DNA from: Shigella phage Sf20
Length of the DNA: 64,000 bases
Sequence record: MF327006
Reading direction: 5' to 3' (one strand)
The notes beneath the pieces were generated by a model, which was not told the origin of the DNA, ran no database searches, and saw only the letters and a list, made by a program, of their open reading frames with translations. This document shows, piece after piece, positions 4,304 through 56,866 of this stretch (positions are counted from its first letter, which is position 1; each line of letters opens with the position of its first letter). A program made the translations under genes and the position numbers.

Positions 4304-4596
4304 TGGCTGGATTATCCTACGATAAAGCTAAAACTACAGGGCACGGAAACTACCCACCTACGGTAATTAATGCAACTCAATCTAAGGTATTTGTTGAGGG
4401 TATCCCTGTATTAGTCGAAGGAGACCCAATTACACCACACACAAAAACAACAAAGCCTTATGATACACACGGGGGAACTACGGTCGCCAGTACCCCGAAA
4501 GTATTTGTTACCGGAAAGAAAGCAATTCAAATGGCAGATCGTATTAGCTGTGGCGATACCGTCGCTATGGCATCACCGAAGGTATTCATAAAATGA
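4303..4596 (+). CDS. 5.4: PAAR-repeat spike tip protein (gp5.4-like), 97 aa
   Basis: 97-aa ORF directly after gene 5 module; size and position as T4 gp5.4. Confidence 0.7.
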
Positions 4597-9580: not shown

Positions 9581-10568
9581 TGAAAATAGTGTGATCTATC
9601 GCTCAATCATTACTAGTAAATTCAGAACGGAAAAACTTCTGAATTTCTATAATTCTGTAGGCGATGGGGCAAATCAAATTACAATTTATGGAACGTTTGG
9701 ACGTTCGGAGCCGTGGTCAGAAAACGAAAAAGAGGTGGGCTTTGCCCCACCTTATCCGACCGATTCAACGGCTGGTGTTGTTGACATGTGGACCCATATG
9801 ATGGGGGCGGTTAAGATTAACAAATCACTTCTTGATGCGGTTATCCCTCGTAAAGATTGGGGTGATACCGGACAGGATAACCCGCGCACATTCTTTATCA
9901 ATGACATTGTTGTTGTCAACTCAGCACCATATAACCGAACTGATGTTGGTAGCGGCTGGATGGTGTATCGCGTAACCGATGTTCCTGATCGCGGTTACTG
10001 CTCGATTTCAAGCATTGACGCTAAAGTAGAGTGTTTGAAGTTGGGCGGAAAGTGGACACCCACTCATGAATCAATTGCGCCACCTGTAGGAAAGGGCGAT
10101 TCTATTGATATGGGTGATGGGTATCGTTGGGAATATCTGTACACAATTCCACCTGATGCGGCGATCAACCGTTGCACCAATGAACATATTGTTGTACCGT
10201 TCCCCGATGAACTGCGACAAGATCCGGCGCGTTGGGGTTATGACAATGTGATCACCTGGTATAATGACTATAATCTGCTTTATCGGCTGAAAGTAGTAAC
10301 TTTGCGTTTTCAGGCTTATATGGACTCTGCGCAATTCCCAACTACCGCGTTAGTGGGTAATACTGGTTTCCGTCAGTTAAGCATTATCCTTAACCCATTG
10401 GAAAAGAAAGCACGCCCTAGCGATCCAGACGTTAAAGCGGTTGAAGATAAGTACCGACCGCAAGACTTAGAGCCACACTCAGGCGAAATGATCTACATGG
10501 AAAACCGACAACCTATCGTTCGGTCATTAGATCAAACAGAACTTGTTTCTGTATTGTTTGAGTTCTAA
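9573..10568 (+). CDS. 8: baseplate wedge subunit gp8, 331 aa
   Basis: Size and synteny. Confidence 0.8.
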   Translation: MANENSVIYRSIITSKFRTEKLLNFYNSVGDGANQITIYGTFGRSEPWSENEKEVGFAPPYPTDSTAGVVDMWTHMMGAVKINKSLLDAVIPRKDWGDTGQDNPRTFFINDIVVVNSAPYNRTDVGSGWMVYRVTDVPDRGYCSISSIDAKVECLKLGGKWTPTHESIAPPVGKGDSIDMGDGYRWEYLYTIPPDAAINRCTNEHIVVPFPDELRQDPARWGYDNVITWYNDYNLLYRLKVVTLRFQAYMDSAQFPTTALVGNTGFRQLSIILNPLEKKARPSDPDVKAVEDKYRPQDLEPHSGEMIYMENRQPIVRSLDQTELVSVLFEF

Positions 10569-10582
10569 GTGTATGATTTAAA

Positions 10583-10616
10583 AGCCAATTCGAGAGAGTT
10601 GGCTTTTTCTGTTTTT
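10583..10616 (+). terminator. rho-independent terminator after gene 8
   Basis: Hairpin AGCCAA-ttcgagagag-TTGGCT followed by TTTTTCTGTTTTT. Confidence 0.65.
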
Positions 10617-10620
10617 GGTG

Positions 10621-10648
10621 TTGACAATCTTGTCTGGTAAGGTATAAT
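10621..10648 (+). promoter_or_regulatory. sigma70-type promoter TTGACA-N16-TATAAT
   Basis: TTGACA at 10621, TATAAT at 10643, then GGAGG RBS and ATG 10678. Confidence 0.65.
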
Positions 10649-10677
10649 GCTCACATCTAAACAACGGAGGATAAATT

Positions 10678-10935
10678 ATGGCACGTCGTAAATTTACAGA
10701 TAATTGTGAAGCAATTCAGGTATCCCCTTGCGGTTGGGATGTGATCGCGAACGGTGAAAAGATCGGAGAGATCATCGATCATACTCATTCATCACTAGCC
10801 GATTACACCGATGAACTATGGGAGGGTATCAACTTCATGAATGACACTAAACGATTCAAGACTATCGACGAAGCTATCTATTTTGTGTATAATCCAACTT
10901 TCGGTATGTGGGGAACTAGAAAATGGCACGCGTAA
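10678..10935 (+). CDS. hypothetical protein, 85 aa (first gene of inserted cassette)
   Basis: ORF with RBS GGAGG; begins MAR like the next two genes. Confidence 0.5.
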   Translation: MARRKFTDNCEAIQVSPCGWDVIANGEKIGEIIDHTHSSLADYTDELWEGINFMNDTKRFKTIDEAIYFVYNPTFGMWGTRKWHA

Positions 10936-11252
10936 ACATTAAACTACACTACACAATGGGTAAACCAAAACATCCGATGCATAAAGTCTTTTGGGGATTG
11001 CGTCTTCAAGAAAAATTTTATGATAACTACTGGTTTTGTGACCATGATAAGAAGTGGCATTCTCAAGATGAAGTTAATGCGATGATGGAACAGGGTATAA
11101 AATTTAATTACTCTAATTATGACCATAGCATTACTTGTATTCGAAAATTGAAACGGTTTATTCGAAAGAATCCGCAATTTAAAAACTTTGTGTTCTTTAT
11201 GTCTCATGTTTATTTGGGGCATAGCGTTACAGTAACAGCAAAGGTTAAATAA
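10923..11252 (+). CDS. hypothetical protein, 109 aa
   Basis: ORF overlapping upstream stop by 13 nt; His/Trp-rich. Confidence 0.5.
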   Translation: MARVNIKLHYTMGKPKHPMHKVFWGLRLQEKFYDNYWFCDHDKKWHSQDEVNAMMEQGIKFNYSNYDHSITCIRKLKRFIRKNPQFKNFVFFMSHVYLGHSVTVTAKVK

Positions 11253-12091
11253 TGGCACGACTTTCTAAACAAGAACAAAAATTACACGATCGGGTGATGG
11301 AGTTGATTAATTCAGATCGCCCATTGACATATGAAGAAAAAGAATTTTGCTATAATAACTATCATGGCGATGGTCTAGGCGGTTCAGGTGCATTCTTTAC
11401 CCCAGAAGGGCTTGCATGGGATTTTACCATCGATGCACATTGCACAGGAAAAGTATTAGATCTTTGTGCTGGGATCGGTCGCTTATCTTTTTGTATGTTA
11501 CATCGTTGTAAGCCAGAAAAGATCGTATGCGTCGAACTCAATCCAGAATTTGCGCGGATTGGCAAGCGACTATTACCGGAGGCAGAATGGATCACCAGCG
11601 ATGTATTCGAATTTGAGTCAACCGAAAAATTCGATGTGGTGATCAGCAATCCACCCTTCGGGAAAATCAATACAACCGACACAAAGGATGTATTTGAGTA
11701 CACTGGTGGCGAATTTGAATTTAAGGTTATGACATTAGGCCAGAAGTTTGCCGATGTAGGTTATTTTATTGTTCCTTCTGGTTCCGCTGGTTTTGCCTAT
11801 TCCGGCAGACCTTATTATGACGGGACCATGAAGTCTAATAAATATCTAAAATGGAGCAAACAAACTGGTTTGGTGACTTATGCCGGATGTGGGATCGATA
11901 CATCAATCTATCGCGATGAATGGCATAGTACCAGCGTTTTAACAGAAGTGGTTGAGGTTCGGTATTACGAGAAAGAAGCCGTAGAAGCGCCTAAATCACG
12001 TCCTAACGAACAAATAGAAGAAAGTAAGGAGATTACCTTACCGAAACAGGAAAGCGAGTCTGGGACGCTCTCAGATTTGTTTGACATTTAA
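11252..12091 (+). CDS. SAM-dependent amino-methyltransferase (NPPF motif; putative N6-adenine or N4-cytosine DNA MTase), 279 aa
   Basis: Motif I VLDLCAGIGR and motif IV VISNPPFG in gamma-class order; start overlaps upstream stop (TAATG). Confidence 0.55.
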   Translation: MARLSKQEQKLHDRVMELINSDRPLTYEEKEFCYNNYHGDGLGGSGAFFTPEGLAWDFTIDAHCTGKVLDLCAGIGRLSFCMLHRCKPEKIVCVELNPEFARIGKRLLPEAEWITSDVFEFESTEKFDVVISNPPFGKINTTDTKDVFEYTGGEFEFKVMTLGQKFADVGYFIVPSGSAGFAYSGRPYYDGTMKSNKYLKWSKQTGLVTYAGCGIDTSIYRDEWHSTSVLTEVVEVRYYEKEAVEAPKSRPNEQIEESKEITLPKQESESGTLSDLFDI

Positions 12092-12095
12092 TTAT

Positions 12096-12123
12096 AAGCC
12101 GTCCTTGTGGGCGGCTTTTTTGT
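12096..12123 (+). terminator. rho-independent terminator after the MTase cassette
   Basis: Hairpin AAGCCGTCC-ttgt-GGGCGGCTT followed by TTTTTTG. Confidence 0.65.
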
Positions 12124-12131
12124 ATGTATTT

Positions 12132-12139
12132 TATAAATA
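12132..12139 (+). promoter_or_regulatory. T4-type late promoter core TATAAATA upstream of gene 9
   Basis: Exact TATAAATA 28 nt upstream of ATG 12167. Confidence 0.6.
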
Positions 12140-12166
12140 ATACATCATAACATGAGGAATTAAACA

Positions 12167-13021
12167 ATGGCACAAGTTCCAAAGAAAAGAATAGACACAG
12201 GTACTGTCGGCAATCCATCGACTGGCGATATCTTATATGATGGCGGTAATAAAATTAACGATAACTTTGACTCAATATATGACGCATTTGCCGATCAGCG
12301 GTTTAAAGACGTAGACCACGGCGTGGGAAGAATGGTTATTCATGCAACCGGATACTATCAGAAGCATCCACGTCAAAGCTACGCGGGTTCCGCTGTTGAG
12401 ATTGGGAGTCTACACGATATCGATACAACTCAAGGAGCACTTATTGCTATTCTACCTAAAGCAAAAGTCGGCGAGGGTGTTGTATTCATAAATAGTAACG
12501 GTAGCCTTTCAACGACGACACCGCTCAATATTCGAACTCAAGCAGGTGATTCTATTAGCGGGTATTCCGGTGATGCTACAATAACACAACCATTTTCAAA
12601 AGTCACTGTTTGGTGTACTGCCGTTGAAGGTAGTCGCGTAACATGGCGATTGGGTATCGAAAGTATGTTTACCGATACAACAACGCCATTAGATAAAACA
12701 GTTAACGTAACTGGAGTAGCAACAAACGTTGCTATTGCCGCAAAAACAGAATACGTTTCCATCAAATTATTAACTACCGCTAGCAATACATCCGGTTCAA
12801 AAATGCGTTCAAGTGAAACGCTACTGATGATTGATTCTAAAGCCGGAAAAGTTTATGCGACGGAATATGCAGTTTTGCAGAAGACAGAAGATGAACTATA
12901 CACGGTTCGTTATTTCATCGGTTCCGGCGATAAAGTATATGCAGAGTATAAGGCTACTGGCGAAAATATTCGTTTAGCAGTTAAAGCCGTAGACACTATT
13001 AAAATCGGGGTTGCTACATGA
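12167..13021 (+). CDS. 9: baseplate wedge / long tail fiber connector gp9, 284 aa
   Basis: N-terminus PKKRIDTGTVGNPSTGDILYDGGNKIN matches remembered T4 gp9 N-terminus. Confidence 0.85.
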   Translation: MAQVPKKRIDTGTVGNPSTGDILYDGGNKINDNFDSIYDAFADQRFKDVDHGVGRMVIHATGYYQKHPRQSYAGSAVEIGSLHDIDTTQGALIAILPKAKVGEGVVFINSNGSLSTTTPLNIRTQAGDSISGYSGDATITQPFSKVTVWCTAVEGSRVTWRLGIESMFTDTTTPLDKTVNVTGVATNVAIAAKTEYVSIKLLTTASNTSGSKMRSSETLLMIDSKAGKVYATEYAVLQKTEDELYTVRYFIGSGDKVYAEYKATGENIRLAVKAVDTIKIGVAT

Positions 13022-14820
13022 AACAATTAATTAATATCGGTAACGTTGTTGATGACGGTACAGGTGATTATCTAAGAAAAGGCGGTCAAAAGATTAATGA
13101 CAACTTTTCTGAACTTTATACTAAGCTGGGGGATGGTGATATCCCTCATGCATCCGGCGCGTGGAAAACTCACACACAACCAGTATTAAAACCAAATTTT
13201 GGTGATGCATGGGCGATTAATACAACGAACAACGCTGTTTCTGTTGAATTGCCTAAAGGAAGCGCGAGCGATTATAATAAAACAATTAAACTTCGTGATG
13301 TTTGGCGCTCATGGGCTGCACATAACGTAACGTTGAAGCCAGCACAAGGTGATACCATTAAGGGATCTCCAATCGACCGTGAGTTGTATAAAGATTTCAT
13401 GGATGTTGAATTGGTTTATTGTGCGCCTGGACGTTGGGAATATGTCGAAAATAAACGAGTAGATACTATCACCACTTCCGATTTAAGCACAGTCGCTAAG
13501 GAAGTTTATATTGCAACCGAAGGACAAACAGACTTCCCTAATGTGTTTGGTTCCAATACTTACAATATTCGAAATGTTGAAGTGTATTATCGCGGTAACT
13601 TGCTTTATTATGGCAAGGATTTAACCGATGATTCTAACTATGGTTCAATCGGTGAAAACGGTGATATTGTTCCTCTTGACGGTAAAAGCATTAAATTACG
13701 CTTCCCTTGTTCGGCTGGTGATACCATTCAAATCATCACTTATATGGACGGTATCGCATCCTTCCGGTCAAGCTATATTACTCATACAATCCGCGTTTAT
13801 GAAACAGGAATGACCACTTTGGAATCCATCCCCGGTGAAGTTTGGGTTGGTGAACTCGCTAATAAGAAAGAATTTACTAATGCTGAATTAGGCGTAAGTA
13901 AGCGAGATCTTATTAATCCAAATTCATTTGAATTGCTGATCAACGGCACACAAATGATTAAAGCGGGTGATGCGGATTTACCTTCCTTTATTTGTGAAGG
14001 TGCTGACGGTGAAACGGAAGAAACCTGCGTACTTGCTGGCGGTCAATGGGTGGAATCTGGGGAAGATTATTCATTGATGTTCGACGAAAACAGCGTGGTG
14101 ACTGGCATTAAATTATCTAAAGCACTAGATAACCGAGATACTATCACAATTCGCTGGTTTAATAATGATATCGGAACATTAATGGAATGGGACGGTGTAG
14201 GCGGTATTAAAGAAAAAGCAGATAAAATCTATCTTAATAACGAAGATGAAGTTACTCTGACAAATCGAATTGAATATACCGATTTCCAAAATCCAAGCCA
14301 AGCGACTAAACGCCCAATGGAAGATTATACAGGTCGTGTGATGGATATCTATTCCATATTCGATATTTTCTATCCTATAGGCACAATTTATGAAAATGCG
14401 CATAACCCAGCTAACCCAGCGACCTATATGGGATTTGGTACATGGGTACGTTATGCAGAAAAAGAATTTTTAGTTGGTTGGTCTTCTGACGCAAGCGATC
14501 AAAACTTCGCACTAAACAACAACGATCTTGATACACATGGTCAACCTACACACACCGCAGGTGGTAATGGTGGTGATGTTGCATACCAGATCAAGAAAAA
14601 TATGATTCCTGAATTACAGAGCGACGATCGAGTTCTTGTAAAAGATGATAACGGAAATATTATTATCGGTGGTTGTCAGGTAGACCCTGATGCAGTAGGT
14701 CCAGCGTTTACCAAATATCGCGAAGATAATGTTAAAGTTAATCAGGGAAATACCGACCCGTCAATGATTGGTATTCTTCCTCCATATAGAACTGTCTATC
14801 GTTGGCTAAGGGTAGGTTAA
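13018..14820 (+). CDS. 10: baseplate wedge subunit and tail pin gp10, 600 aa
   Basis: Size (T4 gp10 about 602 aa), synteny. Confidence 0.8.
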   Translation: MKQLINIGNVVDDGTGDYLRKGGQKINDNFSELYTKLGDGDIPHASGAWKTHTQPVLKPNFGDAWAINTTNNAVSVELPKGSASDYNKTIKLRDVWRSWAAHNVTLKPAQGDTIKGSPIDRELYKDFMDVELVYCAPGRWEYVENKRVDTITTSDLSTVAKEVYIATEGQTDFPNVFGSNTYNIRNVEVYYRGNLLYYGKDLTDDSNYGSIGENGDIVPLDGKSIKLRFPCSAGDTIQIITYMDGIASFRSSYITHTIRVYETGMTTLESIPGEVWVGELANKKEFTNAELGVSKRDLINPNSFELLINGTQMIKAGDADLPSFICEGADGETEETCVLAGGQWVESGEDYSLMFDENSVVTGIKLSKALDNRDTITIRWFNNDIGTLMEWDGVGGIKEKADKIYLNNEDEVTLTNRIEYTDFQNPSQATKRPMEDYTGRVMDIYSIFDIFYPIGTIYENAHNPANPATYMGFGTWVRYAEKEFLVGWSSDASDQNFALNNNDLDTHGQPTHTAGGNGGDVAYQIKKNMIPELQSDDRVLVKDDNGNIIIGGCQVDPDAVGPAFTKYREDNVKVNQGNTDPSMIGILPPYRTVYRWLRVG

Positions 14821-14821
14821 T

Positions 14822-15466
14822 ATGATTTCTAAAACACGTTCAAAAGCTAGTGTATTTTCCAGCGATGCGGCGTTTATTTCATACGATCCAGGATCGAAAG
14901 ATCCTGTTATCGGTGGTTCTCGTCCAATTGGTGGCGTTAATGTCGATCAATCAAGAAAAGGTTCCTATGTAAACAACGTTCAATCTGCAATTGATGACCT
15001 TTATTCATTGTCAATGATCCGAATTGGTGATGTGTTGGTTACAACCAACTCAACTCCACCACAAGCCGCAGGACAGATTGAAACTCTGTCATTTTCTGGT
15101 TCTGTTAACAATCAGCATAATCCAGACGCAAACAAAGTATTAATTGATGTTTTGGGTTATCCATTTATTGTTGATGTTGGGTCTTCCGGCGTTTCTCTAT
15201 GTGAGAAAGTAACGGAAAAATTTACCGAACTAATGAATAAAAACATTATGTTCAAAGAAGTAAAAAGAAAAGGAAGTAGCAACGACCAATTAGAAATTCA
15301 TTATATCGATTCTCTTGAACACCCACCAACCGATATTAACAAGTACGGAATTACAATCACAGGAAATGTTGATTCTCCTGCTCGTGTTGGTTATGGTTCA
15401 TGGTCTCGAATGGGTACAGAAGAGAAATTTGGAACTACCCTATATTATTTCAAACGTATTGCATAA
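14822..15466 (+). CDS. 11: baseplate wedge subunit gp11, 214 aa
   Basis: Size and synteny. Confidence 0.75.
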   Translation: MISKTRSKASVFSSDAAFISYDPGSKDPVIGGSRPIGGVNVDQSRKGSYVNNVQSAIDDLYSLSMIRIGDVLVTTNSTPPQAAGQIETLSFSGSVNNQHNPDANKVLIDVLGYPFIVDVGSSGVSLCEKVTEKFTELMNKNIMFKEVKRKGSSNDQLEIHYIDSLEHPPTDINKYGITITGNVDSPARVGYGSWSRMGTEEKFGTTLYYFKRIA

Positions 15467-15477
15467 GGTGATGTATA

Positions 15478-16878
15478 ATGGCAAACAATACTATTAACCA
15501 TGTAAAAGACGATGCTCAATACGTCAAGTTTAACCCTGTAAATGATTGGCCTCAAAGCATTACCAACGTACAAGCGGCTTTAGCCGCTATTAATGGCTTT
15601 GCCGTAAATGGATTACCGGACGCTACGGAAGATACAGCCGGGATCGCTGCAATCGCAACTCAGGAAGAAGTAAACGACGGCACTGTAGACAATAAGATCG
15701 TGACTCCAAAAACGCTAGCTGTTAAAATGTCACGTCCAGATGCTACAAAAGAAGTAAAAGGCATTACCCGATTTGCCACGATGGAAGAATCGCTGCAAGA
15801 GAGCAACGAGAACATGGCAATCGGTCCAGACACACTAAACCATTACTTCACCACTAAAAAGGCGTCAGAGAGCGTTCAGGGGACTATTAAGATATGTTCT
15901 CTTGAGGCGGCAAAGATTGGCAGTGATGACACAATGGCAGTAACACCGAAAAAGATGCACACTGCCATTGCACAGATTGTGCCGGGATTAATTCCAGATC
16001 AAAACACAGCAACCGAAAGCGCACAGGGTTTAGTTCAGTTAGCAACTAATGCGCAGGTTTTACAAGGCCAGATTCGAGAAGGTTTTGCAATTAGCCCTTA
16101 TGCATTTGCAAATGCTCGCGCCAATGAGAATCAGGCGGGTACTGTTAAGATCGCCAGCCAGTCACAGATGAATGCTGGTTCAGATGATACTGTAGTTGTT
16201 TCTGCTAAGAAGTTTGCAAGCACTAAGGCAACAACGTCTCAATACGGCATTGTTAAACTACGAGACACCGTAGGAAGTGAGGCTAACGCTGCACTATCAG
16301 CAAATGCTAAGGTTCTTCCTAGCACTGGCGGTACGGTAAGCGGAAACGTCTATAAAGGTTCAAACTCAGACGGCAACCAGTTTGTTACTAAAAATGAATT
16401 AGCGAATCACGCAATGCCAATTGGTGGTATTATCCTTTCTGGATTCAATGCCGATCGAGGTGACTTTCTGATCTGTAATGGTCGTTCACTGAATAAAAAT
16501 CAATATCCGCAATTATTTTCTGCGATTGGTTATACCTTTGGTGGTTCAGGTGACAATTTTAATCTTCCTGATATGCGCGGTTTAGTTGCTCGTGGTTGCG
16601 ATCATGGAAGAAACCTTGATCCAGGTCGTCGATTTGGTTCTTATCAAGAAGACGCAATGCAGAGAATTACTGGTAAATTCCCTGTAGCTGACCGCTGGCG
16701 CGGTTGGTATGGTGGCGCATTTACTGCACAGCGCGGTCAATGGAGCACGAACTATAAAAACGGTGGTGGTGATGATTGGGGTTCTACTGTTAACTTTGAT
16801 TCAGGAAGATCCGTAAGAACGGCTAACGAGACTCGCGTCAAGAGTCTGGCATTAAACTATATCATAAGGGTGCGCTAA
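15478..16878 (+). CDS. 12: short tail fiber gp12, 466 aa
   Basis: Repetitive Ala/Thr/Gly-rich fiber sequence, synteny. Confidence 0.8.
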   Translation: MANNTINHVKDDAQYVKFNPVNDWPQSITNVQAALAAINGFAVNGLPDATEDTAGIAAIATQEEVNDGTVDNKIVTPKTLAVKMSRPDATKEVKGITRFATMEESLQESNENMAIGPDTLNHYFTTKKASESVQGTIKICSLEAAKIGSDDTMAVTPKKMHTAIAQIVPGLIPDQNTATESAQGLVQLATNAQVLQGQIREGFAISPYAFANARANENQAGTVKIASQSQMNAGSDDTVVVSAKKFASTKATTSQYGIVKLRDTVGSEANAALSANAKVLPSTGGTVSGNVYKGSNSDGNQFVTKNELANHAMPIGGIILSGFNADRGDFLICNGRSLNKNQYPQLFSAIGYTFGGSGDNFNLPDMRGLVARGCDHGRNLDPGRRFGSYQEDAMQRITGKFPVADRWRGWYGGAFTAQRGQWSTNYKNGGGDDWGSTVNFDSGRSVRTANETRVKSLALNYIIRVR

Positions 16879-18647
16879 TGATTGAACAATTAAACATCCA
16901 CGAGATCCCACATGTTGACGGTGTACCAGGCGAAGGACAGCACCGTATTATTTGGATCAAGAATGGCGAATGTTTAAGCGCAGCAACGACACAGACTGGC
17001 AATGACGGGACGCTTAACCGCGCCCCGGTTGCAATTCAAGAAAACGTTGCACGCGTAAACGAAAACGCAAAATCAACCGTCGCTAAAGTTAACGAGGTTG
17101 TAACGGCGGTTAACGATATTAAAACAACTTTAGGGGTAATTTCTGACGGAAGTATCATTGATGTGGTTAACCAGACTGTCGCAAAAGTTGAATCCGTCGA
17201 AGAGAACTTAGGAGAAACAGCAAGAACTCTGCAAACAACGGTAGACGCTGTATCAGAACTTAACATCAAGATTGGTGATCGCCCCGCTGCCGATCCGAGC
17301 ACAAGAACAATCTATGATGACATTTCTTTCATCAAACAAGAAATGGGTTCTTATCCTAACTTTAATATCAATGGTTCCCCGGATGCTGGCAGTTCCGGTT
17401 CTGGCATCAAATACCGAGTTATTCAGAATACCGCAGCATTAAATGACCACGGTCGCCGAATCGTTCAGCTTGAAAACGACTGGCAAGATTCTGACGTAGG
17501 CGAGTTAACAAGACAAGTTAACAAAATGCGCAGTGAGATCGGCGACACGTCTCTTGCAACACAAGAAAATGTGTATGTTCGTCTCCGCACCAACGCAAGA
17601 AACATTGCTAACTTATCAAACGAAGTTCTAGAAGTCAAGAAAGCAATTTTGTTTGATTCAATCCCTGATATCGGGACTAAAGTCACTACGCTGGGAACTA
17701 ATTATGAACGTCTAAACAATGATGTTAATGGTGTAGATTCCGGTATTCGTCCTCGTCTTCTGGCTGTCGAGAATAAGATCGGAACGCCTCAATCGGCTGG
17801 AAGCATTGATTATCGATTAACCAACACAGAGCGAGAATTTTTAGATCTTAAACAGGTTGTTGGTGTAAGCGGTGCTGACGGTTTGCGCGGTGAAGTTGTT
17901 CGACTTTCCAATGAGATTGGCACTGACAGCGATCGACATACTCTAGCCGGACGTCTTAAAGTTGTAGAAAACACTCAGGGTCGGTTAGAAGCAAGCGTAC
18001 AGGACATGGAACAGATTGTAGGTGATCGCGAATCAGGTTTGACCGCTGGCGTTATTAAACTATCAAGTGATATCTATGGCGATGATGGTTCAGAAGATCC
18101 ATTTACTCAGAAAGGCGTGATTAAAATCGTCAAAGAGCTACAAACATCTAACGGAAACAAAGTAGATGATGTACCTGATGACGGTTTCCATTATCTGCGT
18201 AAGCGCGGAGAATGGGTGCAAGTTGCATATGCTGCTGGAGCATTTAAAAATACCGCAGATATTACGGTTGAACTTGACGAACAGGATGTTTATAAACCGA
18301 TTCCGCTTAACGACATGGCGGAAGAAGTTAATGCTCGTCAAATGGTGAAAAGTGAATCTGTTGTTACCGTTCAGGACAAAGGTTTATTCCGTTGTGTATT
18401 CCGTTGTGATGTACAAGCTCAACATAATGCAACATTCATTGTTGCGATTTTCAAAAATGGACAGATGGTACATGAAGCGAAAAATGGTCATTACGGAACA
18501 GACGAATTGATCAGCTATTCTACCAGTGCTTTCCTAAATATTGAAACGGGAGATCAGATTAACATCCGTATTAAGGGTGTATCTGCCGAAGCAGTAGCAC
18601 AGCCAGTACAAATTAAAGAGTTCCTCTTTGGGATTTCTCCGGTATAA
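16878..18647 (+). CDS. wac: fibritin (wac) with C-terminal extension domain, 589 aa
   Basis: N-terminus IPHVDGVPGEGQHRIIWIKNG like T4 fibritin; coiled-coil body; foldon-like GFHYLRKRGEWVQV followed by extra ~140 aa. Confidence 0.8.
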   Translation: MIEQLNIHEIPHVDGVPGEGQHRIIWIKNGECLSAATTQTGNDGTLNRAPVAIQENVARVNENAKSTVAKVNEVVTAVNDIKTTLGVISDGSIIDVVNQTVAKVESVEENLGETARTLQTTVDAVSELNIKIGDRPAADPSTRTIYDDISFIKQEMGSYPNFNINGSPDAGSSGSGIKYRVIQNTAALNDHGRRIVQLENDWQDSDVGELTRQVNKMRSEIGDTSLATQENVYVRLRTNARNIANLSNEVLEVKKAILFDSIPDIGTKVTTLGTNYERLNNDVNGVDSGIRPRLLAVENKIGTPQSAGSIDYRLTNTEREFLDLKQVVGVSGADGLRGEVVRLSNEIGTDSDRHTLAGRLKVVENTQGRLEASVQDMEQIVGDRESGLTAGVIKLSSDIYGDDGSEDPFTQKGVIKIVKELQTSNGNKVDDVPDDGFHYLRKRGEWVQVAYAAGAFKNTADITVELDEQDVYKPIPLNDMAEEVNARQMVKSESVVTVQDKGLFRCVFRCDVQAQHNATFIVAIFKNGQMVHEAKNGHYGTDELISYSTSAFLNIETGDQINIRIKGVSAEAVAQPVQIKEFLFGISPV

Positions 18648-18656
18648 GAAATTAAA

Positions 18657-18680
18657 GGGGCGTTAAGCCCCTTTTTCGTT
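18657..18680 (+). terminator. rho-independent terminator after wac
   Basis: Hairpin GGGGC-gttaa-GCCCC followed by TTTTT. Confidence 0.65.
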
Positions 18681-18693
18681 TATAGGTGATATT

Positions 18694-19626
18694 ATGTCAG
18701 GATATGTAACCAATAACCCAAGAGAATTAAAAGACGCTATTCTGCGTCGTTTAGGCGCACCAGTAATTAACGTAGAAGTAACAGAAGACCAGATTTACGA
18801 TTGTATTCAGAGAGCATTAGAACTCTATGGGGAATATCATTTCGATGGTGTGAATAAAGGATATAAAGTATTTCGTGTTAGTGCCGAGCAAGCGCAACAC
18901 GGGGTATTTGATTTAAGCGATTCTGGAGTATTCGCAGTAACTAAAATAATTCGAACAAACGTAGGTAGCGCGGCTACGATGGATGGTACTGCCGTTTATC
19001 CGTGGTTTACTGACTTTCTGTTGGGTTTAGCGGGTGTAAATGGCGGTTTAGGATCTGGCTGTAGTAAATTTTATGGTCCAAATGCAATGGGTGGTGATCT
19101 AGGATATTTCGAACAGCTTATGAGCTATAGAGCCACTATGCAAAATATGCTCAATCCGCTGCCAGATTATTGGTATAACAGCGCAAACGGACAACTTAAG
19201 ATAACAGGAAACTTCCGAGAAGGTGATCTCATTGTTGTTGAATTATATGTTAAAAGCTATGTAGACGTTCCTGATATGATCGGCGCGGTTGCTGGTTATG
19301 CTCATGCGGGAGGATGTTCTACCGCTGGCGGGATTAGCGCCGTTTATGATAATCCAACTGCTGGTTTAAGCGGGATTGTTGCTGGCATGGGACCGATCAG
19401 TGAGAACAAGCAGGGCGCATATAATAACCGTTGGGTTAAAGACATGGCAACCGCTTTCACTAAGGAGGTGTGGGGGTCCATCATGGCTAAACATCAAGGT
19501 CTGCAATTACCCGGCGGTGTCACTGTTGATGGTATCCGAATCATTGAAGAAGCACGCGCCGACATTGAGAAATTGCGACAAGAACTAGAATTATTAGATC
19601 CTCCGTTCGGCATCCTCATGATTTGA
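18694..19626 (+). CDS. 13: neck protein gp13, 310 aa
   Basis: Size and synteny. Confidence 0.8.
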
Positions 19627-21276: not shown

Positions 21277-23594
<2,318 letters not shown>

Positions 23595-23628: not shown

Positions 23629-25632
23629 ATGACTCTATTATCACCGGGTTTCGAAACGAAAGAAACTACTCTCTCCACTACCATTGTGCAATCTGCGACT
23701 GGTCGCGCTGCACTGGTAGGTAAATTCCAATGGGGTCCAGCTTTCCAGATTATTCAAGTAACTAATGAAGTTGAATTAGTTAATAAATTTGGTCAGCCGG
23801 ATAATAACACCGCAGACTATTTCATGAGCGGGGCTAACTTCCTCCAGTATGGCAATGACCTGCGTGTTGTTCGTGTATTGAATAAAGAAAAAGCGAAAAA
23901 CGCAACTGCCCTAGCTGGTAACGTCGAGTTTGAAATCACAAACGAAGGTTCAAACTATGAAGTAGGCGATACCATCAAGATTAAACATAACCGTCAAGAT
24001 ATTGAAACGGCTGGTAAAGTAACTAAAGTTGATGGTGATGGTAAAGTTAAGGGCGTATTTATCCCAACTGGTAAAATTATCGCTCACGCTAAAGCAATCG
24101 GTGTATATCCAGAACTTGATGGCGGTTGGACGGCAGAGTTCACTTCTTCGTCAGGTAACGGTAGTGCGGCGCTGTCAGTAACTAAAATTGTTACTGATTC
24201 CGGTCTTCTGTTAACGGATCTGGAAACTTCCCGCGCCAATATCACAAATCAGACTTTCTTGACTAAACTCCAGAAGTATGATATGCCAGCGGTAAGCGCG
24301 ATCTATGCTGGTGAGATTGGCAACTCGCTGGAAGTTGAAATTCTGGCACGTAGCGCGTTCAGTGGCGCGGTAGCACCTGAATTAACTATGTATCCGTTCG
24401 GCGGAACTCGTGCCGCAGCACGCAACCTGATTCCATATGCACCGCAGAATGATAATCAATATGCATTTATTGTTCGTCGCGATGGTGTTGTGGTAGAATC
24501 CTATGTACTGTCTACTCTGAAAGGGGATAAAGACGTATACGGCAATTCTATCTACATGGACGACTTCTTTGCTCGTGGTTCTAGCCAGTACATCTATGCA
24601 ACCGCTCAAGGGTGGGTAGATGGTTTCAGTGGTATTATCTCTCTTGCTGGTGGTGTTTCTGCTAACGAAGCAACGACTGGTGGAGTTGGTGCTGATCCGT
24701 TCATCGGTGCGATGATGCAAGGTTGGGATCTGTTTGCTGAACGAGAATCTATTCACGTAAACCTGTTGATCGCTGGTGCATGTGCTGGCGAAGGCGATGC
24801 GTTCTCTACCGTACAGAAACATGCTGTTTCCATCGGTGATGAGCGTCAGGATTGCTTAGTAATGGTTTCTCCGCCGCGTAGCACTGTTGTTAATATTCCG
24901 GTGACTACCGCAATTGATAACCTGATTGCATGGCGCGAAGGTTCAGGAAACTATAATGAAAACAACATGAACATTAATACCACTTACGCTGTTATTGATG
25001 GTAACTACAAATATCAGTATGACAAATACAACGACGTAAACCGTTGGGTTCCGTTGGCTGCTGATATTGCTGGTTTGTGCGCTCGTACTGATGCTGTATC
25101 CCAACCGTGGATGAGTCCGGCAGGTTATAACCGTGGTCAGATCATGAACGTGGTTAAACTGGCAATTGAGCCTCGCAAGGCGCACCGCGATCGTCTGTAT
25201 CAGGCCGCAATTAACCCGGTAATCGGTGCTGGTGGTGAAGGTTTTATCCTGATGGGTGATAAAACCGCTACGACTGTTCCTAGCCCGTTTGACCGCATTA
25301 ACGTTCGTCGTCTGTTTAACATGCTGAAAAAGAATATCGGCGATTCAAGCAAATACAAACTGTTTGAAAACAACGATAACTTTACTCGCGCTTCCTTCCG
25401 TATGGAGGTTTCGCAATATCTCAGCACGATTCGCTCTCTGGGTGGCATTTATGACTTCCGAGTACAATGCGACACCACGAATAACACGCCGGATGTAATT
25501 GATCGTAACGAATTTGTTGCTAGTATGTTCATCAAACCAGCAAAATCGATCAACTATATCATGCTCAATTTCACTGCTGTTGCAACTGGTTCTGATTTTG
25601 ACGAAATTATCGGTCCAGCTAACCAGGCATAA
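23629..25632 (+). CDS. 18: tail sheath protein gp18, 667 aa
   Basis: Size and synteny. Confidence 0.9.
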   Translation: MTLLSPGFETKETTLSTTIVQSATGRAALVGKFQWGPAFQIIQVTNEVELVNKFGQPDNNTADYFMSGANFLQYGNDLRVVRVLNKEKAKNATALAGNVEFEITNEGSNYEVGDTIKIKHNRQDIETAGKVTKVDGDGKVKGVFIPTGKIIAHAKAIGVYPELDGGWTAEFTSSSGNGSAALSVTKIVTDSGLLLTDLETSRANITNQTFLTKLQKYDMPAVSAIYAGEIGNSLEVEILARSAFSGAVAPELTMYPFGGTRAAARNLIPYAPQNDNQYAFIVRRDGVVVESYVLSTLKGDKDVYGNSIYMDDFFARGSSQYIYATAQGWVDGFSGIISLAGGVSANEATTGGVGADPFIGAMMQGWDLFAERESIHVNLLIAGACAGEGDAFSTVQKHAVSIGDERQDCLVMVSPPRSTVVNIPVTTAIDNLIAWREGSGNYNENNMNINTTYAVIDGNYKYQYDKYNDVNRWVPLAADIAGLCARTDAVSQPWMSPAGYNRGQIMNVVKLAIEPRKAHRDRLYQAAINPVIGAGGEGFILMGDKTATTVPSPFDRINVRRLFNMLKKNIGDSSKYKLFENNDNFTRASFRMEVSQYLSTIRSLGGIYDFRVQCDTTNNTPDVIDRNEFVASMFIKPAKSINYIMLNFTAVATGSDFDEIIGPANQA

Positions 25633-47830: not shown

Positions 47831-48308
47831 CTAAATCATTGCAATATTTTAGTGCCTTAGTTTGAAATTCTGCGCTGTTAAGTTCTTCATAACGGTCATA
47901 ATCACCGTTTAATGCTGCCTTTCTTGCTTCTTGCTCTATCTGCATGTCAGACATGATAATACAGCGATCCCGTGCTTTCATCTTCTCAAGTTGTATAGAC
48001 TCTTCTTTCTGCTTGCGCAATTCTTCTTGACGCTTCTTTTCTTCTTGTGCTTTCTCTTCCCGCGCTTCTTTGATTGCATCCTTGAACATCTGCGTTTGTG
48101 GTGCTAAACCAACTTTAACGCGATCCACGTCTCGACGTTCCATTTTAGAAATAAAGCACGATTCGATCTGATCATCACTTGCATATGCTGCTTTACATTC
48201 ACGAAGCAAGAAAACCGGATCTGATTTAGCATTCATCATAGCTTCCATGTTGGCACAACCAGTAAGCATGAATGCAGCCGCAAGACCAATCAGTTTAATC
48301 ATTTTCAT
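47823..48308 (-). CDS. putative lipoprotein, 161 aa
   Basis: Signal peptide with lipobox (AAFMLTGC); Lys/Glu-rich coiled region; RBS GAGGTGA. Confidence 0.55.
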   Translation of the reverse strand: MKMIKLIGLAAAFMLTGCANMEAMMNAKSDPVFLLRECKAAYASDDQIESCFISKMERRDVDRVKVGLAPQTQMFKDAIKEAREEKAQEEKKRQEELRKQKEESIQLEKMKARDRCIIMSDMQIEQEARKAALNGDYDRYEELNSAEFQTKALKYCNDLAK

Positions 48309-49129
48309 TTAGTCACCTCACCGAAAATTGTAAATTGTCTACGATTCTCATCGCCGAAAGATTCTACTACGTCGTTTACCTTGACGCAAGTCCCGCGCGG
48401 TAAAATTACTTCACATTCGCAAGGGTTCCATGCAATTGACCCAACAACAAAACCTTTATGATCTTTTACGTCAATTACCCATGATACATTACAAGAATGT
48501 TGCATCTTTCCGGTCATTGATTCATATCGATTCTCACAATAAAGGCTAGTGCTGTTTGATAGCCATCCTCCAAAGATGATCGGTGTCATGCTGGTCGATA
48601 CAAAGTTTTTAAAGGTAAACTCCTTATCTTCAATGATGCGCTCTATTGTCTGAATGTCAAGATGTTGACCGCGATAAAGAGTACCGTTTAACTTTTCGGT
48701 TTTATCCATGACACAATCCATCAAATCAACAATCTCTGATATCTCATCGGTCATGTCTTCTTCCCCTAAGAGAGCACCATTTACCCATTCGTATTGCTCA
48801 GACACATAATCACATATTGCATTATATTCTGCTGGGGTTATGTTGTTATGTTTGTAATGTTTGAATACATTATCTCCAAAGTCTTCGGAGTGTACTTCAT
48901 ACATCACATTAATGATTTTCTTGACAAATCCATAATCTTGTGTCTCACGCTCAAGGAAGCGGATAACCTTCACATAATCATCAAAGTTAATCTGATCGCT
49001 GATCATCTCAGTGATCATGTAACCATTAATCCCCTCAATGTCATATGTTTCGATGTAATTATCCATACGTTCCATCATTGATTCGCGTGATTCTTCTGAA
49101 AGACGAAAATCCTGTAATTTCTTGAACAT
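48305..49129 (-). CDS. Alt-like mono-ADP-ribosyltransferase paralog, 274 aa
   Basis: R-S-E catalytic triad signature: LYRGQ, FVSTS, ECEVILP. Confidence 0.6.
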   Translation of the reverse strand: MFKKLQDFRLSEESRESMMERMDNYIETYDIEGINGYMITEMISDQINFDDYVKVIRFLERETQDYGFVKKIINVMYEVHSEDFGDNVFKHYKHNNITPAEYNAICDYVSEQYEWVNGALLGEEDMTDEISEIVDLMDCVMDKTEKLNGTLYRGQHLDIQTIERIIEDKEFTFKNFVSTSMTPIIFGGWLSNSTSLYCENRYESMTGKMQHSCNVSWVIDVKDHKGFVVGSIAWNPCECEVILPRGTCVKVNDVVESFGDENRRQFTIFGEVTK

Positions 49130-49207: not shown

Positions 49208-51333
49208 TTACATTTTAAATTTATCTGGCATTGCGTCTACAGATACCAGGTCAGCGATAAGCTGACGTAGAGTTGCCTTATCTGCTTTCTTACGTTCGGT
49301 TTTAGCTTCGCTAATGAAGCTGGAGAAAGACAGGTCAGAAGCAGGTTTAACAACACCTTCACGGATGAATGCATCACCGTCCGCGATCATCTCGCCAGAT
49401 TCTTGTAATGCTGCCAGTTCATTTTTGTTCATAATATGTGCCTCAATGTAATAAGTTTCTTGTGAATCCGTCGATGCCGTAGCACGAGTTACCGTATCAA
49501 AGGATAACACAACACCGCGAGGAAGTAAAATCTCGCATTCTTTGTAAGCAAATGCTTTGTTACCTACTGGCAAGACAGGGATGTTTTCCGCGCCAGCAAT
49601 GGAGAAAGCAACATTAGCGCCACCTTCACCGCGAGAGCCAGCCATAGAATCAACACCAGCAACGGCACTAGCCACGTTTGCATTCCAGCCGCCAAAAATT
49701 CACCGCGAGAGCCAGCCATAGAATCAACACCAGCAACGGCACTAGCCACGTTTGCATTCCAGCCGCCAAAAATGTTAGGTGCAAGGGAAGTGCTCACATA
49801 GTTTTTAAAGTAAAACGCTTTTTGCTTACGTGCAGTTTCCCACATTTGCGACCGGAAGTCCATACCACGATACAGAATAGTACCCGGATCAAGTTTAACA
49901 CCATAGTTAGAGAAGGCATTATCCAGTGCATCGCACATCTTGACCAATTCTTCTGGATCTGCGATTCCCTCAAACTCTTCCAGCTTACGATCAGTTAGGA
50001 AGTTGTTCATATTGATGTATGCTGCATCGGCATATTCGCTCAACACAAAACCTTCCGCGCCTGGCAGATCAAGATCAATATCTGCCATCATTTCACCCAT
50101 GTTGCTAGCAATTGCTTCAAACATACCGGAGGCAACATTACGTAGGGCATCGGTTTTAATCTGGGTGATATGACTACGCAGCATTTCAGCTTTTACATCT
50201 GCTGGCATAGACTGGTCTACTCGATCCATTGCCAAGGCGGTGATCTTGTTTTCGAATACTTCCTCGCTCATGATTTCTTTTAAGCGTTTGACCGAGGCTG
50301 CGATAACTTCCGCAGACAATGGGTCATATTGATCCTGAACTTTTACCAGTTCGCTTACTGCGTATTTTGCATCGGCTTCGCTTTCAAAAATAGTACGCAT
50401 GAAACCATAGCGAGTGATAATATCACTTGTCCAGTCATTCAGAGAACGGGCGGTTGAACGTTCTAAGGCTTGACGGTCAATCAGAGTATTAAACTGTTTC
50501 TTAGGTTCTGCTTCGGTGATATCTTCTTCCGGTTTAAGATTAATTTTTTCTGGATGATTCACATAGTCGCTGTTATAGGTCGCTTGAGTTTTCAGCATTT
50601 CTTCTTTAGTCAAACGAGATTTAGCCGCTACGCGTTGTTCTGCTTCCGCGTTTCGTTCTTCTTCTGACACAAGACTAGCCGCATACGCCTCATCTTTAGT
50701 CAGAGATTCACCAGTAGCCTTAGATACCCAGCGATCACCTAAATCACTTTCTACTTTAGTGAACAAGGATTCATCAAGTTTAATCCCTTTAATCTTATCA
50801 ATCGCCATCCCGCGACGCTTGACAACAACTAAAGCGATCTTTTTGCTGGTCATTACTTCCTGCTGGAATACTTCAAACTTCGGTGTACGACGCACCAAAC
50901 GCTCTATAACGCGCTTAACCAGTTCGGTCTTACCTTTCATGCGGGATACGTTAAAACGGAACATAACAGCGTCTAATTGAGCTTTACGGGCTGTTTCCAT
51001 AACCACATCAAAAGCACTTGCCATAACTGCAATCGGGTTATCGCCTAGACCATTTTTAAGCTGTATAATACGACCGCTTTTGTTCATTTCGCACAGTACA
51101 ACATGTGCGGTCTTGTCACCCATACGAATGATTTTAGGTGTTTTGTTGGTGAAGTTGCAAAGACGGACAATCACATCTTTATCGCGTGTCTGTACTGCAA
51201 AAAGCTGTTTAGGATTCTGCTTAGGCTTTAAGCACTGTACAGGAGCAATACTGCCAAAGTTTTCTTCCTCTTCCGTCAACAGCCATTTCTCGAAAGATTC
51301 AATCATTAGATCGTCGATTTCTAAGTTAAACAT
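49208..51333 (-). pseudogene. alt: alt (ADP-ribosyltransferase) disrupted by 74-bp tandem duplication frameshift
   Basis: 589-aa ORF (49564-51333) carries LYRG and YVSTS; 155-aa ORF (49208-49675) carries the ExE motif KECEIL; both encode ASAVAGVDSMAGSRGE from the duplicated segment; removing one copy gives a single ORF of about 683 aa (T4 Alt is about 682 aa). Confidence 0.75.
49625..49772. repeat. perfect tandem direct duplication, 2 x 74 bp
   Basis: 49625-49698 is identical to 49699-49772 (TTCACCGCGAGAGCCAGCCATAGAATCAACACCAGCAACGGCACTAGCCACGTTTGCATTCCAGCCGCCAAAAA). Confidence 0.9.
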
Positions 51334-51686: not shown

Positions 51687-52205
51687 TTAGTTATTTTTTA
51701 ATTGTTCATCTTGCAATAATGCAATCACATGCTGGCGATGTTCTTCCGATTGAGGTACACCGAAAAAGTTTGTTTTGTAGAAATACTCTAATCGGTCTTC
51801 TCGTGTGCTCTCTTCCATCATGATCGCGGGTAGTCCGAGATTTCGGAAACGTCGCTTTTCTGCTGGCGTAAAATCACTGTAATACAACATAGAATCATCA
51901 TTACAAGCAATGCTAAACTCATCCTTCATAAAGGAGAATATTGCGTTTAAACGCTGTTTACCGTCCACGATTTCGATCTCATAGCGAGAGCCATCATCAA
52001 TCTTAGCCATTGCGATAGCACCAACCGGAAAATCATTAATCAGGTTTTCAATAAACATACGTTTGTTTTCGGTGTCCCATACTAAAGGACGCTGATAATC
52101 TGGGTTCATGTTGATATAGCCATCTTCTAACCATGCTTCGTAAACAGAGATAACAAAGTTTTTAGTATTGGTATAGTAGCGGCGTTTAGGCGTTAAACGG
52201 TTCAT
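51687..52205 (-). CDS. DUF262 / ParB-like nuclease-domain protein, 172 aa
   Basis: Motifs DYQRPLVW and DGKQRL; ATG 52205 one nt after upstream stop, RBS AGGAG. Confidence 0.55.
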   Translation of the reverse strand: MNRLTPKRRYYTNTKNFVISVYEAWLEDGYINMNPDYQRPLVWDTENKRMFIENLINDFPVGAIAMAKIDDGSRYEIEIVDGKQRLNAIFSFMKDEFSIACNDDSMLYYSDFTPAEKRRFRNLGLPAIMMEESTREDRLEYFYKTNFFGVPQSEEHRQHVIALLQDEQLKNN

Positions 52206-52206
52206 G

Positions 52207-52536
52207 TTATAGTCTCCTGAATGGGTCATCACGTAAATCAATATCTTTTAAGAACTCATCCCATGAATGGCGGATATTGTTCTTAATTCTCCAGATGAGC
52301 GCAGGGATTGAACGCTCTCCCATCTGGAAGTATGGATCATATGATCCGTATGCCCAATATGCTACTACAATTCCACAATCAGAGCAATAGTATTCTATTT
52401 CACTTGCTGGCGACCAAAGTCCATCAATATGATCGGTGATCTTGCTTTCGATGTTATGGCTATGACAATCAGGGCAACGGATGCAATGACCTTGTTTATC
52501 GTAATTTGACGTTAGCGAATACTTAAACAATCTCAT
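52207..52536 (-). CDS. zinc-ribbon protein, 109 aa
   Basis: Cys clusters CIRCPDC and CSDCG; start overlaps upstream stop (TAATG). Confidence 0.55.
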   Translation of the reverse strand: MRLFKYSLTSNYDKQGHCIRCPDCHSHNIESKITDHIDGLWSPASEIEYYCSDCGIVVAYWAYGSYDPYFQMGERSIPALIWRIKNNIRHSWDEFLKDIDLRDDPFRRL

Positions 52537-54770: not shown

Positions 54771-54801
54771 AAAAAAGCCGACACTAAGGTCGGCACATTT
54801 T
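54771..54801 (-). terminator. terminator hairpin GCCGACACTAAGGTCGGC
   Basis: Hairpin 54777-54794 flanked by A/T runs, just downstream of stop at 54800; identical hairpin at 55279. Confidence 0.6.
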
Positions 54802-55111
54802 AAAAATTCTTGCTATATATGCAAGCCTCATAATCTAGAGGATGACCGCCAATCCTACCCGGCTTAATATTCCAACCGCATCGATATTTGCTGACCATGC
54901 TAACAGTTTCGGTTCTTAGAGCATTTCTTTGCAAATCATACCCCCTAAATTCTTGTCTATAAGGACAGTCCGCTTTGCAAGTTGGCGGTTCTACGTCATT
55001 TAGAGGGTCGGAAGCAGTTGGCTTTATTATCAATTCTTTGTTTGCAATAATCATAAGCACATCCCATTGAAGACAATTTAACATCTTCGCAATAAGTGTT
55101 GAATCCGTCAA
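54800..55111 (-). CDS. hypothetical Cys-containing protein; start uncertain (TTG at 55111, ATG at 55084 or 55054)
   Basis: 103-codon ORF whose 5-prime part overlaps the 63-aa ORF in another frame; possible frameshift or overlapping gene. Confidence 0.35.
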   Translation of the reverse strand: MTDSTLIAKMLNCLQWDVLMIIANKELIIKPTASDPLNDVEPPTCKADCPYRQEFRGYDLQRNALRTETVSMVSKYRCGWNIKPGRIGGHPLDYEACIYSKNF

Positions 55112-55187
55112 ACACGATCACTTCGTATTTGACTCCATCAGCGATAGCTTTTACTTTATACCATCCATGCTTGTATAAAATCTTCAT
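54996..55187 (-). CDS. small Cys-rich protein, 63 aa
   Basis: ATG 55187 with GAGGA RBS downstream of cassette promoter 6. Confidence 0.45.
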   Translation of the reverse strand: MKILYKHGWYKVKAIADGVKYEVIVFDGFNTYCEDVKLSSMGCAYDYCKQRIDNKANCFRPSK

Positions 55188-55219
55188 CTTTATTTCCTCG
55201 ATCTCGTTTCGATGGGTGT

Positions 55220-56325: not shown

Positions 56326-56634
56326 TTATAAAGTTTGACCGTTGTTTTTCGCGTAATGCTGAATGCGTGCTTGATCTGCTTCCGCTGGTGATAGATTCCA
56401 TGCGATCACTACAACTTCTGACGCATCATGATCATTATCACTTACCCAATGATTATGATTCATACAATTGTTTGCTATCGCGTGAGCAAATGATCTCATT
56501 ACCGGAGACGTATAATCATAGTAACGGATTTTCAGATTTTCATCAACGTACAAGTAGATCGTATACGGCTTATATTCAGTAACCAGTAACAGACAGTTAC
56601 GCAATTCTGGGAAAATCTTTTTAGTTAATTTCAT
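56326..56634 (-). CDS. HxHW-family small protein, paralog C, 102 aa
   Basis: Signature YTIYLYVDENL ... HNHW ... VIAWNL; start at ATG 56634 (N-terminus MKLTKKIFPEL parallels paralog A). Confidence 0.5.
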   Translation of the reverse strand: MKLTKKIFPELRNCLLLVTEYKPYTIYLYVDENLKIRYYDYTSPVMRSFAHAIANNCMNHNHWVSDNDHDASEVVVIAWNLSPAEADQARIQHYAKNNGQTL

Positions 56635-56635
56635 T

Positions 56636-56866
56636 TTATAATCCTCGGTCGCGGCTATAGTAAACGGTACGCCATACAATTTCATGTTTCGTGTCGCTCC
56701 AGCACACGATCTCATTTACTCTTAAATCTTTGTTATCAACAAAAGATGAACATTGTGACGCTTCTTTCATCATTTTATCTGCTGTTTTCTCATCAAATAC
56801 AGCACAGATTTCTTTATACACTCGATAATCTTTGAATTGACTCTGAATACCCATAATTAACACCAT
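56636..56866 (-). CDS. hypothetical protein, about 76 aa (paralog of the gene at 56814-57077); start uncertain
   Basis: Shared segment FKDYRVYKEICAVFDEKTADKMMKEASQC vs FKEYKAYQQILRVYAPEFAEKMMEDASKC. Confidence 0.4.
   Translation of the reverse strand: MVLIMGIQSQFKDYRVYKEICAVFDEKTADKMMKEASQCSSFVDNKDLRVNEIVCWSDTKHEIVWRTVYYSRDRGL

Follow-up and report, generated by a model that had tools for sequence, protein, structure and literature searches.

The alt locus of Sf20

An alt locus occupies positions 49208-51333 (minus strand) of the analysed stretch of Shigella phage Sf20 DNA, a sequence of 64,000 nucleotides referred to here as the window. It adjoins the tail-tube junction genes gp48/gp54, and a gene for a 274-aa paralogous ADP-ribosyltransferase (ART) lies directly downstream (48305-49129), intact and with its own R-S-ExE motifs. 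Sf20 was reportedly described by Doore et al. in 2018. The genome of Sf20 is record MF327006 (PMC12533011).

As deposited, alt is represented by two overlapping open reading frames (ORFs) on the minus strand. The upstream ORF (589 aa, 49564-51333) comprises Alt residues 1-545 followed by a 44-aa out-of-frame hydrophobic tail (FLAAGMQTWLVPLLVL...SCQ): it holds R489 (49867-49869) and the STS motif (49786-49794), lacks the ExE motif, and matches profile positions 19-126 only of the 196 positions of PF03496. Its product has been databased as 'ADP ribosyltransferase [Shigella phage Sf20]' (AUV63874.1; UniRef100_A0A2K9VNI9), NCBI and UniRef being its sole sources. The second ORF (155 aa, 49208-49675) corresponds to Alt residues V529-M683, repeats the peptide ASAVAGVDSMAGSRGE and contains the KECEIL motif, with the catalytic E574-C-E576 at 49532-49540. 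This ORF has no recognisable Shine-Dalgarno sequence of its own and, when searched alone, gave no Pfam match. Neither the 155-aa product nor the restored protein described below was found in any of the protein collections checked.

The two ORFs are the consequence of an extra 74 bp, which shifts the frame between the STS and ExE motifs; as this length is not divisible by 3, gene callers see a 589-aa product and a 155-aa fragment. An earlier note, made from the letters of the window, had described a frameshift after STS, an out-of-frame tail on the upstream ORF and an ExE motif left in a separate 155-aa ORF with a repeated peptide, and each of these points was confirmed. Translational rescue of the frame was considered and set aside: it would need a -1 slip at GAA-UUU-UUG (A_UUU_UUG), which is not a canonical X_XXY_YYZ site, and the 155-aa ORF lacks a clear Shine-Dalgarno sequence.

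Restored alt gene and its relatives

Removal of one 74-bp copy gave a single ORF of 2052 nt encoding a 683-aa Alt-like RNA-polymerase ADP-ribosyltransferase, in agreement with the earlier note. The restored gene aligned without gaps over 2052 nt to 21 relatives, and its product has the same length as YP_010097209 of phage KFS-EC, which is annotated as Alt-like ADP-ribosyltransferase. The PF03496 match then spanned positions 18-194 of the 196 in the profile: the ART domain is complete in a single polypeptide once one copy is removed, and is not so as deposited. Compared with T-even Alt proteins (tblastn, >1100 records annotated Alt), the restored protein showed 25-30% identity over 95-99% of its length. 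R489, S514-T515-S516 and E574-x-E576 proved invariant when the protein was aligned with T6 Alt and the 274-aa paralogue. Sequence searches for homologues of Alt with a solved structure returned none. Judged by its sequence, the gene is an Alt-type ADP-ribosyltransferase (R-S-E ARTs, PF03496), and the identification made in the earlier note was upheld by the invariant triad and the near-complete domain match.

Tandem duplication and its junction

The 74-bp units lie at 49625-49698 and 49699-49772, without spacer, and were identical at 74/74 bases (Tandem Repeats Finder, TRF: period 74, 2.0 copies, 100% matches, score 298), exactly as the earlier note had stated. Beyond the units, the identity continues for 1 nt on the right-hand side (T at 49773) and for 0 nt on the left. 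No other perfect tandem duplication (period 15-1200) was found within the 64-kb window. On the plus strand, copy 1 (49625-49698) reads TTCACCGCGAG...GCCGCCAAAAA. Copy 2 (49699-49772) comes first in gene orientation and is in frame: it encodes I521-E545 of Alt (IFGGWNANVASAVAGVDSMAGSRGE), the segment between STS and ExE, with codon I521 beginning at 49773. One of the two copies is judged to be spurious.

The single-copy context of the repeat runs from ...GCGCCACC/TTCACC... through ...CAAAAA/TGTTAGG. The novel junction (49685-49714) reads CCAGCCGCCAAAAA/TTCACCGCGAGAGCCA and is unique in the window: its 30-mer (CCAGCCGCCAAAAATTCACCGCGAGAGCCA) occurred once, against 0 expected in shuffles, and had zero matches in viral, genome and metagenome contig collections. 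Microhomology at the junction is 1 nt, i.e. at chance level, and there is no nucleotide similarity between the endpoints and the 274-aa paralogue gene. The endpoints show no repeat or homology that could account for a real event or for a misassembly caused by repeats. The paralogue was also dismissed as a partner in ectopic recombination or in an assembly tangle: the paralogous protein shares IFGGW at the start of the repeat, but nucleotide homology is absent and the longest other exact match of the repeat segment within the window is 11 nt.

Comparison with Krischvirus genomes

The window belongs to Krischvirus (RB49-like, Straboviridae); among the genomes of the phage collection, KFS-EC is nearest to it (99.0% identity over 24 kb). 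The segment was present as one copy in all 58 Krischvirus records of that collection (58/58), and the junction was absent from every one of them. An intact Alt of 683 aa is likewise encoded by each of 20 additional contigs (NCBI, ENA and Logan). Altogether, ~78 related assemblies were single-copy at this position, and none carried an alt lesion of any kind. Krischvirus sequence of other origin (302 kb) contained no comparable duplication.

The state of the surrounding genome was assessed against 88 KFS-EC genes: 83 had full-length counterparts in the window, and alt was the sole split gene. The other differences from KFS-EC consisted of three missing homing/HNH endonuclease genes and one small ORF with a variant C-terminus, and small indels near alt proved to be polymorphisms common to other isolates. 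A generally poor assembly was ruled out by the 83 full-length genes and the shared nature of the nearby indels.

The pN/pS of alt was 0.059 across the genus and 0.053 for the Sf20 allele, which carries four private substitutions (three synonymous, plus V90I). The gene is under strong purifying selection in the genus, and the Sf20 allele behaves alike, with no sign of decay. On the evidence within the window alone, a recent real mutation and a finishing artefact would be about equally likely.

Orientation of the Sf20 record

Positions 1-3 hold the minus-strand TAA stop codon of the gene for gp2, the 'DNA end protector', and base 1 of the window is the last base of that codon. A random start would fall on a CDS boundary with a chance of ~0.3%. 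The accession numbers AUV63874 and AUV63819 differ by 55, and ~54-55 genes were counted from base 1 of the window to alt. The truncated Alt is therefore approximately the 55th protein, which matches the gene count and places the start of the window at base 1 of the record. A start placed exactly on a gene boundary shows that the contig was re-oriented by hand after assembly. The record of Sf21, a phage of the same submission, likewise starts exactly at the end of rIIA.

Sister genomes of the same submission

Other records of the submission were inspected for perfect redundancies. Sf21 (MF327007, 166,002 bp) contains one perfect tandem duplication of 286 bp (74547-75118), the only one in the record. 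It frameshifts gene 53, which is accordingly annotated as 'gp53' and 'similar to C-terminus of T4 gp53', and ~500 relatives carry one copy, without the duplication. The baseplate wedge subunit gp53 is essential, and a T4-like phage without a homologue yields no infectious progeny (PMC10821221). Since gp53 is essential, the repeat in the Sf21 record cannot represent a viable phage.

Sf19 (MF327005, 90,375 bp) contains one perfect duplication of 337 bp (22448-23121), again the only one in the record, which is absent in ~260 relatives, including siblings at 99.3-99.7% identity. In three further records the redundancy is terminal. The last 248 bp of Sf13 (MF158040, 87,570 bp) are identical to its first 248 bp; this record was not re-oriented and the region is single-copy in Sf19. 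Sf15 (MF158041, 88,474 bp) was not re-oriented either and also ends with a repeat of its first 248 bp, the break lying at another genome position than in Sf13. In Sf17 (MF327004, 90,092 bp), the last 427 bp repeat the first 427 bp and the same gene is annotated at both ends; no internal duplication was found in this complete record. Comparison of the record ends of Sf16 and Sf18 showed no end-to-end overlap.

The complete Sf17, Sf19 and Sf21 records thus hold exactly one redundancy per genome; the scan of Sf20, which covered the first 64 kb of the 163,982-bp record, found one there. The overlap lengths across the submission are not constant (74, 248, 248, 286, 337 and 427 bp). The pattern of the submission is that perfect end overlaps were kept: terminal in the unrotated contigs, and as an internal tandem duplication in the rotated ones.

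Origin of the 74-bp duplication

The 74-bp repeat is very probably an untrimmed contig-end overlap that was made internal by rotating the contig, and not a mutation. T4-like genomes are circularly permuted, and their reads would assemble into a 'circular' contig that is written out in linear form, with its final bases repeating its first. Direct repeats at the ends of circular phage contigs have been documented as an assembly artefact, in the range of 50-200 bp (PMC8008677). The linear Sf20 contig would have begun and ended within alt, with an overlap of 74 bp; when the submitters rotated the sequence so that it starts where gene 2 ends, they would have joined the old end and the old start untrimmed, and this join would have produced the perfect head-to-tail duplication in alt. 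The junction at 49685-49714 would accordingly mark the point at which the two ends of the original contig met. By analogy, we infer the same technical origin for the Sf20 repeat as for those in the sister records. The phage itself most likely encodes an ordinary intact 683-aa Alt, so that the 'alt gene split' of the earlier note applies to the database record and, most probably, not to the phage, given that sister records hold one equivalent redundancy each. That note had left the choice open between a recent event, an artefact and a deliberate edit; the evidence taken together points to the artefact.

A real spontaneous duplication is an unlikely explanation. It would have arisen by a replication or illegitimate-recombination error shortly before or in the course of laboratory propagation, and been fixed by plaque purification as a null alt allele: the 589-aa product would keep the N-terminal part with R and STS and lose ExE, and the phage would survive through the dispensability of Alt activity in culture and the presence of a paralogue. 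Several observations are in keeping with such an event. The alt gene is non-essential, as phage T4 carrying the catalytically dead Alt E577A is viable (PMC11404850); a location in a dispensable gene is what a tolerated lesion would need; the paralogue at 48305-49129 is intact with R-S-ExE; other T4-like genomes have been deposited with a broken or partial alt (50AhydR13PP, fPS-2); and the undecayed state of the allele also fits a very recent event. Duplications of this kind are, however, a rare class of mutation, the microhomology of 1 nt is what chance provides, and the ~78 related assemblies without an alt lesion give no sign that loss of alt is selected. The junction was seen nowhere else among the collections searched, and a biological cause could hardly account for the equivalent perfect redundancies of five sister records, one of which lies in an essential gene. 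It is highly improbable that the Sf20 stock carries a real, recombination-reversible knockout of an injected ADP-ribosyltransferase.

Causes other than an artefact, which is very probable, or a real recent duplication, which is unlikely, together carry a marginal likelihood. One of these, a local polishing or read-mapping error that added an extra copy independently of the contig ends, would account for a repeat that is perfect, isolated and private to the record. It is very improbable: the segment is unique and offers no repeat to mislead a mapper, the rest of the window is clean (83/88 genes at full length, other indels shared), and one redundancy per sister genome, terminal or internal, suits a circularisation join better. 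A deliberate edit, whether engineered into the phage or put into the sequence afterwards, is scarcely credible. The perfect identity and the tidy position between two catalytic motifs could be read in its favour; the 589-aa product is nevertheless already in GenBank and UniRef (AUV63874.1), from an environmental isolate whose description dates from 2018, knockouts are not normally designed as 74-bp duplications, and analogous repeats occur at unrelated places in the sister records.

With regard to the dispensability of alt, one observation counts against an artefact: a real knockout would be tolerable here, unlike one in gene 53 of Sf21. Escape from host defence through loss of Alt was considered as a separate candidate and dropped, because the 'Alt' of the CmdTAC paper is alt.-3, a different gene. 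A literature search found no paper linking alt loss to defence escape.

Consequences for public records

With an untrimmed contig overlap as the preferred reading, the scientific weight of the repeat is small, since alt is most likely ordinary and intact in the phage itself, and its practical weight is one of data quality. Protein databases have taken over the defect in the form of a truncated 'ADP ribosyltransferase' (AUV63874.1 / UniRef100_A0A2K9VNI9). In Sf21, including its RefSeq copy NC_042077, the essential gp53 is falsely split; in Sf19, a head-region gene is falsely duplicated; and Sf13, Sf15 and Sf17 have redundant ends. Several public records, and the protein entries derived from them, need correction. 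In comparative and defence-escape studies, artefacts of this type can pass for pseudogenes, gene duplications or terminal repeats. An automatic screen is feasible, using the following signature: a single perfect, private, head-to-tail repeat per genome, combined with a record start at a gene boundary.

If the duplication were real, the phage would be tolerating a null allele of a head protein that is injected and acts on Arg265 of RNA polymerase alpha. T4-type recombination between the 74-bp direct repeats could then restore alt at a measurable rate, giving a mixed on/off population; hosts able to sense Alt or its activity might favour phages in the off state.

Comparison with known systems

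T4 Alt travels in the phage head, enters the cell along with the DNA and modifies Arg265 of RNA polymerase alpha (PMC2988021). The restored Sf20 gene is homologous along its full length and shares the R / S-T-S / E-x-E triad, and the counterpart of T4 E577 is E576 here, as placed by the ExE alignment to T6 Alt and not to T4 itself. It is similar in size to the T6 Alt CDS (683 and 698 aa, respectively), and the gp48/gp54 neighbourhood is shared. The Sf20 gene differs from T4 alt in being the Krischvirus orthologue, distant in sequence, and in being split as deposited. Split or partial alt genes are annotated in two other phages: in Aeromonas phage 50AhydR13PP, alt is entered as two CDSs, and in Yersinia phage fPS-2, g192c is entered as an Alt N-terminal pseudogene or fragment.

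Among spontaneous rII mutants of T4-type phages, head-to-tail duplications occur whose length is not a multiple of 3 and which inactivate a dispensable gene, as the duplication would do in Sf20 alt. The Sf20 case differs from these in having no microhomology above chance level and no independent observation, and in that a technical cause is demonstrated in the sister records.

A close parallel is provided by the terminal direct repeats of 'circular' contigs: identity is perfect, there is no spacer, the position is arbitrary, 74 bp falls within the reported 50-200 bp, and the equality of suffix and prefix is directly visible in Sf13, Sf15 and Sf17. Overlap lengths vary within the submission and do not reflect one k-mer size, so that reading 74 as a k-1 overlap (k = 75) is speculative. 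The Sf20 overlap differs from such terminal repeats in being internal, the contig having been rotated before deposit.

Duplications and end copies in the sister Shigella phage genome records

A perfect 286-bp tandem duplication was found in Sf21, at positions 24648-25219 of the piece L038 (74547-75118 of record MF327007 / NC_042077). It disrupts the reading frame of gene 53, an essential baseplate gene, which was consequently annotated as two CDSs, gp144 and gp145, the latter described as 'similar to C-terminus of T4 gp53'. The 286-bp duplication was confined to MF327007 and its RefSeq copy NC_042077, and is almost certainly an artefact. In Sf19 (MF327005), a perfect tandem duplication of 337 bp (positions 22448-23121 of the piece L029) generates an apparent additional gene, gp34, annotated as 'Sf19 gp33 with a C-terminal extension'; the duplication was absent from approximately 260 relatives, including siblings at >99% identity.

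Perfect copies of the record start were found at the record end of three further genomes: the final 248 bases repeat the first 248 in both Sf13 (MF158040; end pieces L030/L031) and Sf15 (MF158041; L034/L035), and the final 427 bases repeat the first 427 in Sf17 (MF327004; L042/L043). One gene of Sf17 was annotated twice, at either end of the record, and its second copy carries the placeholder locus tag 'Sf17_xxxxx'. The 427-bp end copy may be a true terminal repeat, a reading that was kept for Sf17 only and not for Sf13 or Sf15.

Published size of the Sf20 genome

The Sf20 genome is given as 169,232 bp in Table 2 of PMC12533011, where the identical figure is listed for phage Brandy. In the protein collection, by contrast, Sf20 is a contig of 163,982 bp, and the published figure is therefore probably a copy error.

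Comparison of the window with KFS-EC

The block of baseplate, short-tail-fibre and fibritin genes (window 4280-19622) showed ~88% nucleotide identity to KFS-EC, versus ~99% in its flanks, and its products gp11, gp12 and wac shared 72-77% amino-acid identity with those of KFS-EC. This block resembles a mosaic host-range module. The homing/HNH endonuclease genes gp025, gp039 and gp104 of KFS-EC were cleanly missing from the window, their sites lying at ~4287, ~19625 and ~62750.

An insertion of ~430 bp relative to KFS-EC was located in a hypervariable stretch (window 54774-55201 and surroundings). Among the metagenome and Logan contigs from relatives, several independent ones begin no more than a few hundred bases away from this neighbourhood, which suggests that the region is a frequent assembly break point. 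A small hypothetical ORF (window 56329-56715, minus strand), homologous to the 106-aa gp087 of KFS-EC, departs from it over the last 8 residues, owing to two single-nucleotide deletions close to its 3' end.

The 184-aa ORF at window 51687-52241 (minus strand) corresponds to a 172-aa product in relatives, which bears a GmrSD_N (DUF262-type) domain. In one Logan assembly (L011), the gene is broken into pieces of 92 and 80 aa.

ADP-ribosyltransferase genes

Directly downstream of alt, a second, intact ADP-ribosyltransferase of 274 aa (PF03496, E = 4e-16) is encoded on the minus strand at window 48305-49129. Its R-S-ExE is complete, and the identical protein sequence was found in many Krischvirus assemblies. 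In Aeromonas phage 50AhydR13PP (NC_055746; piece L025, 923-2879), alt is annotated in two parts, as overlapping CDSs of 819 and 1173 nt, and is preceded by a further Alt-like gene.
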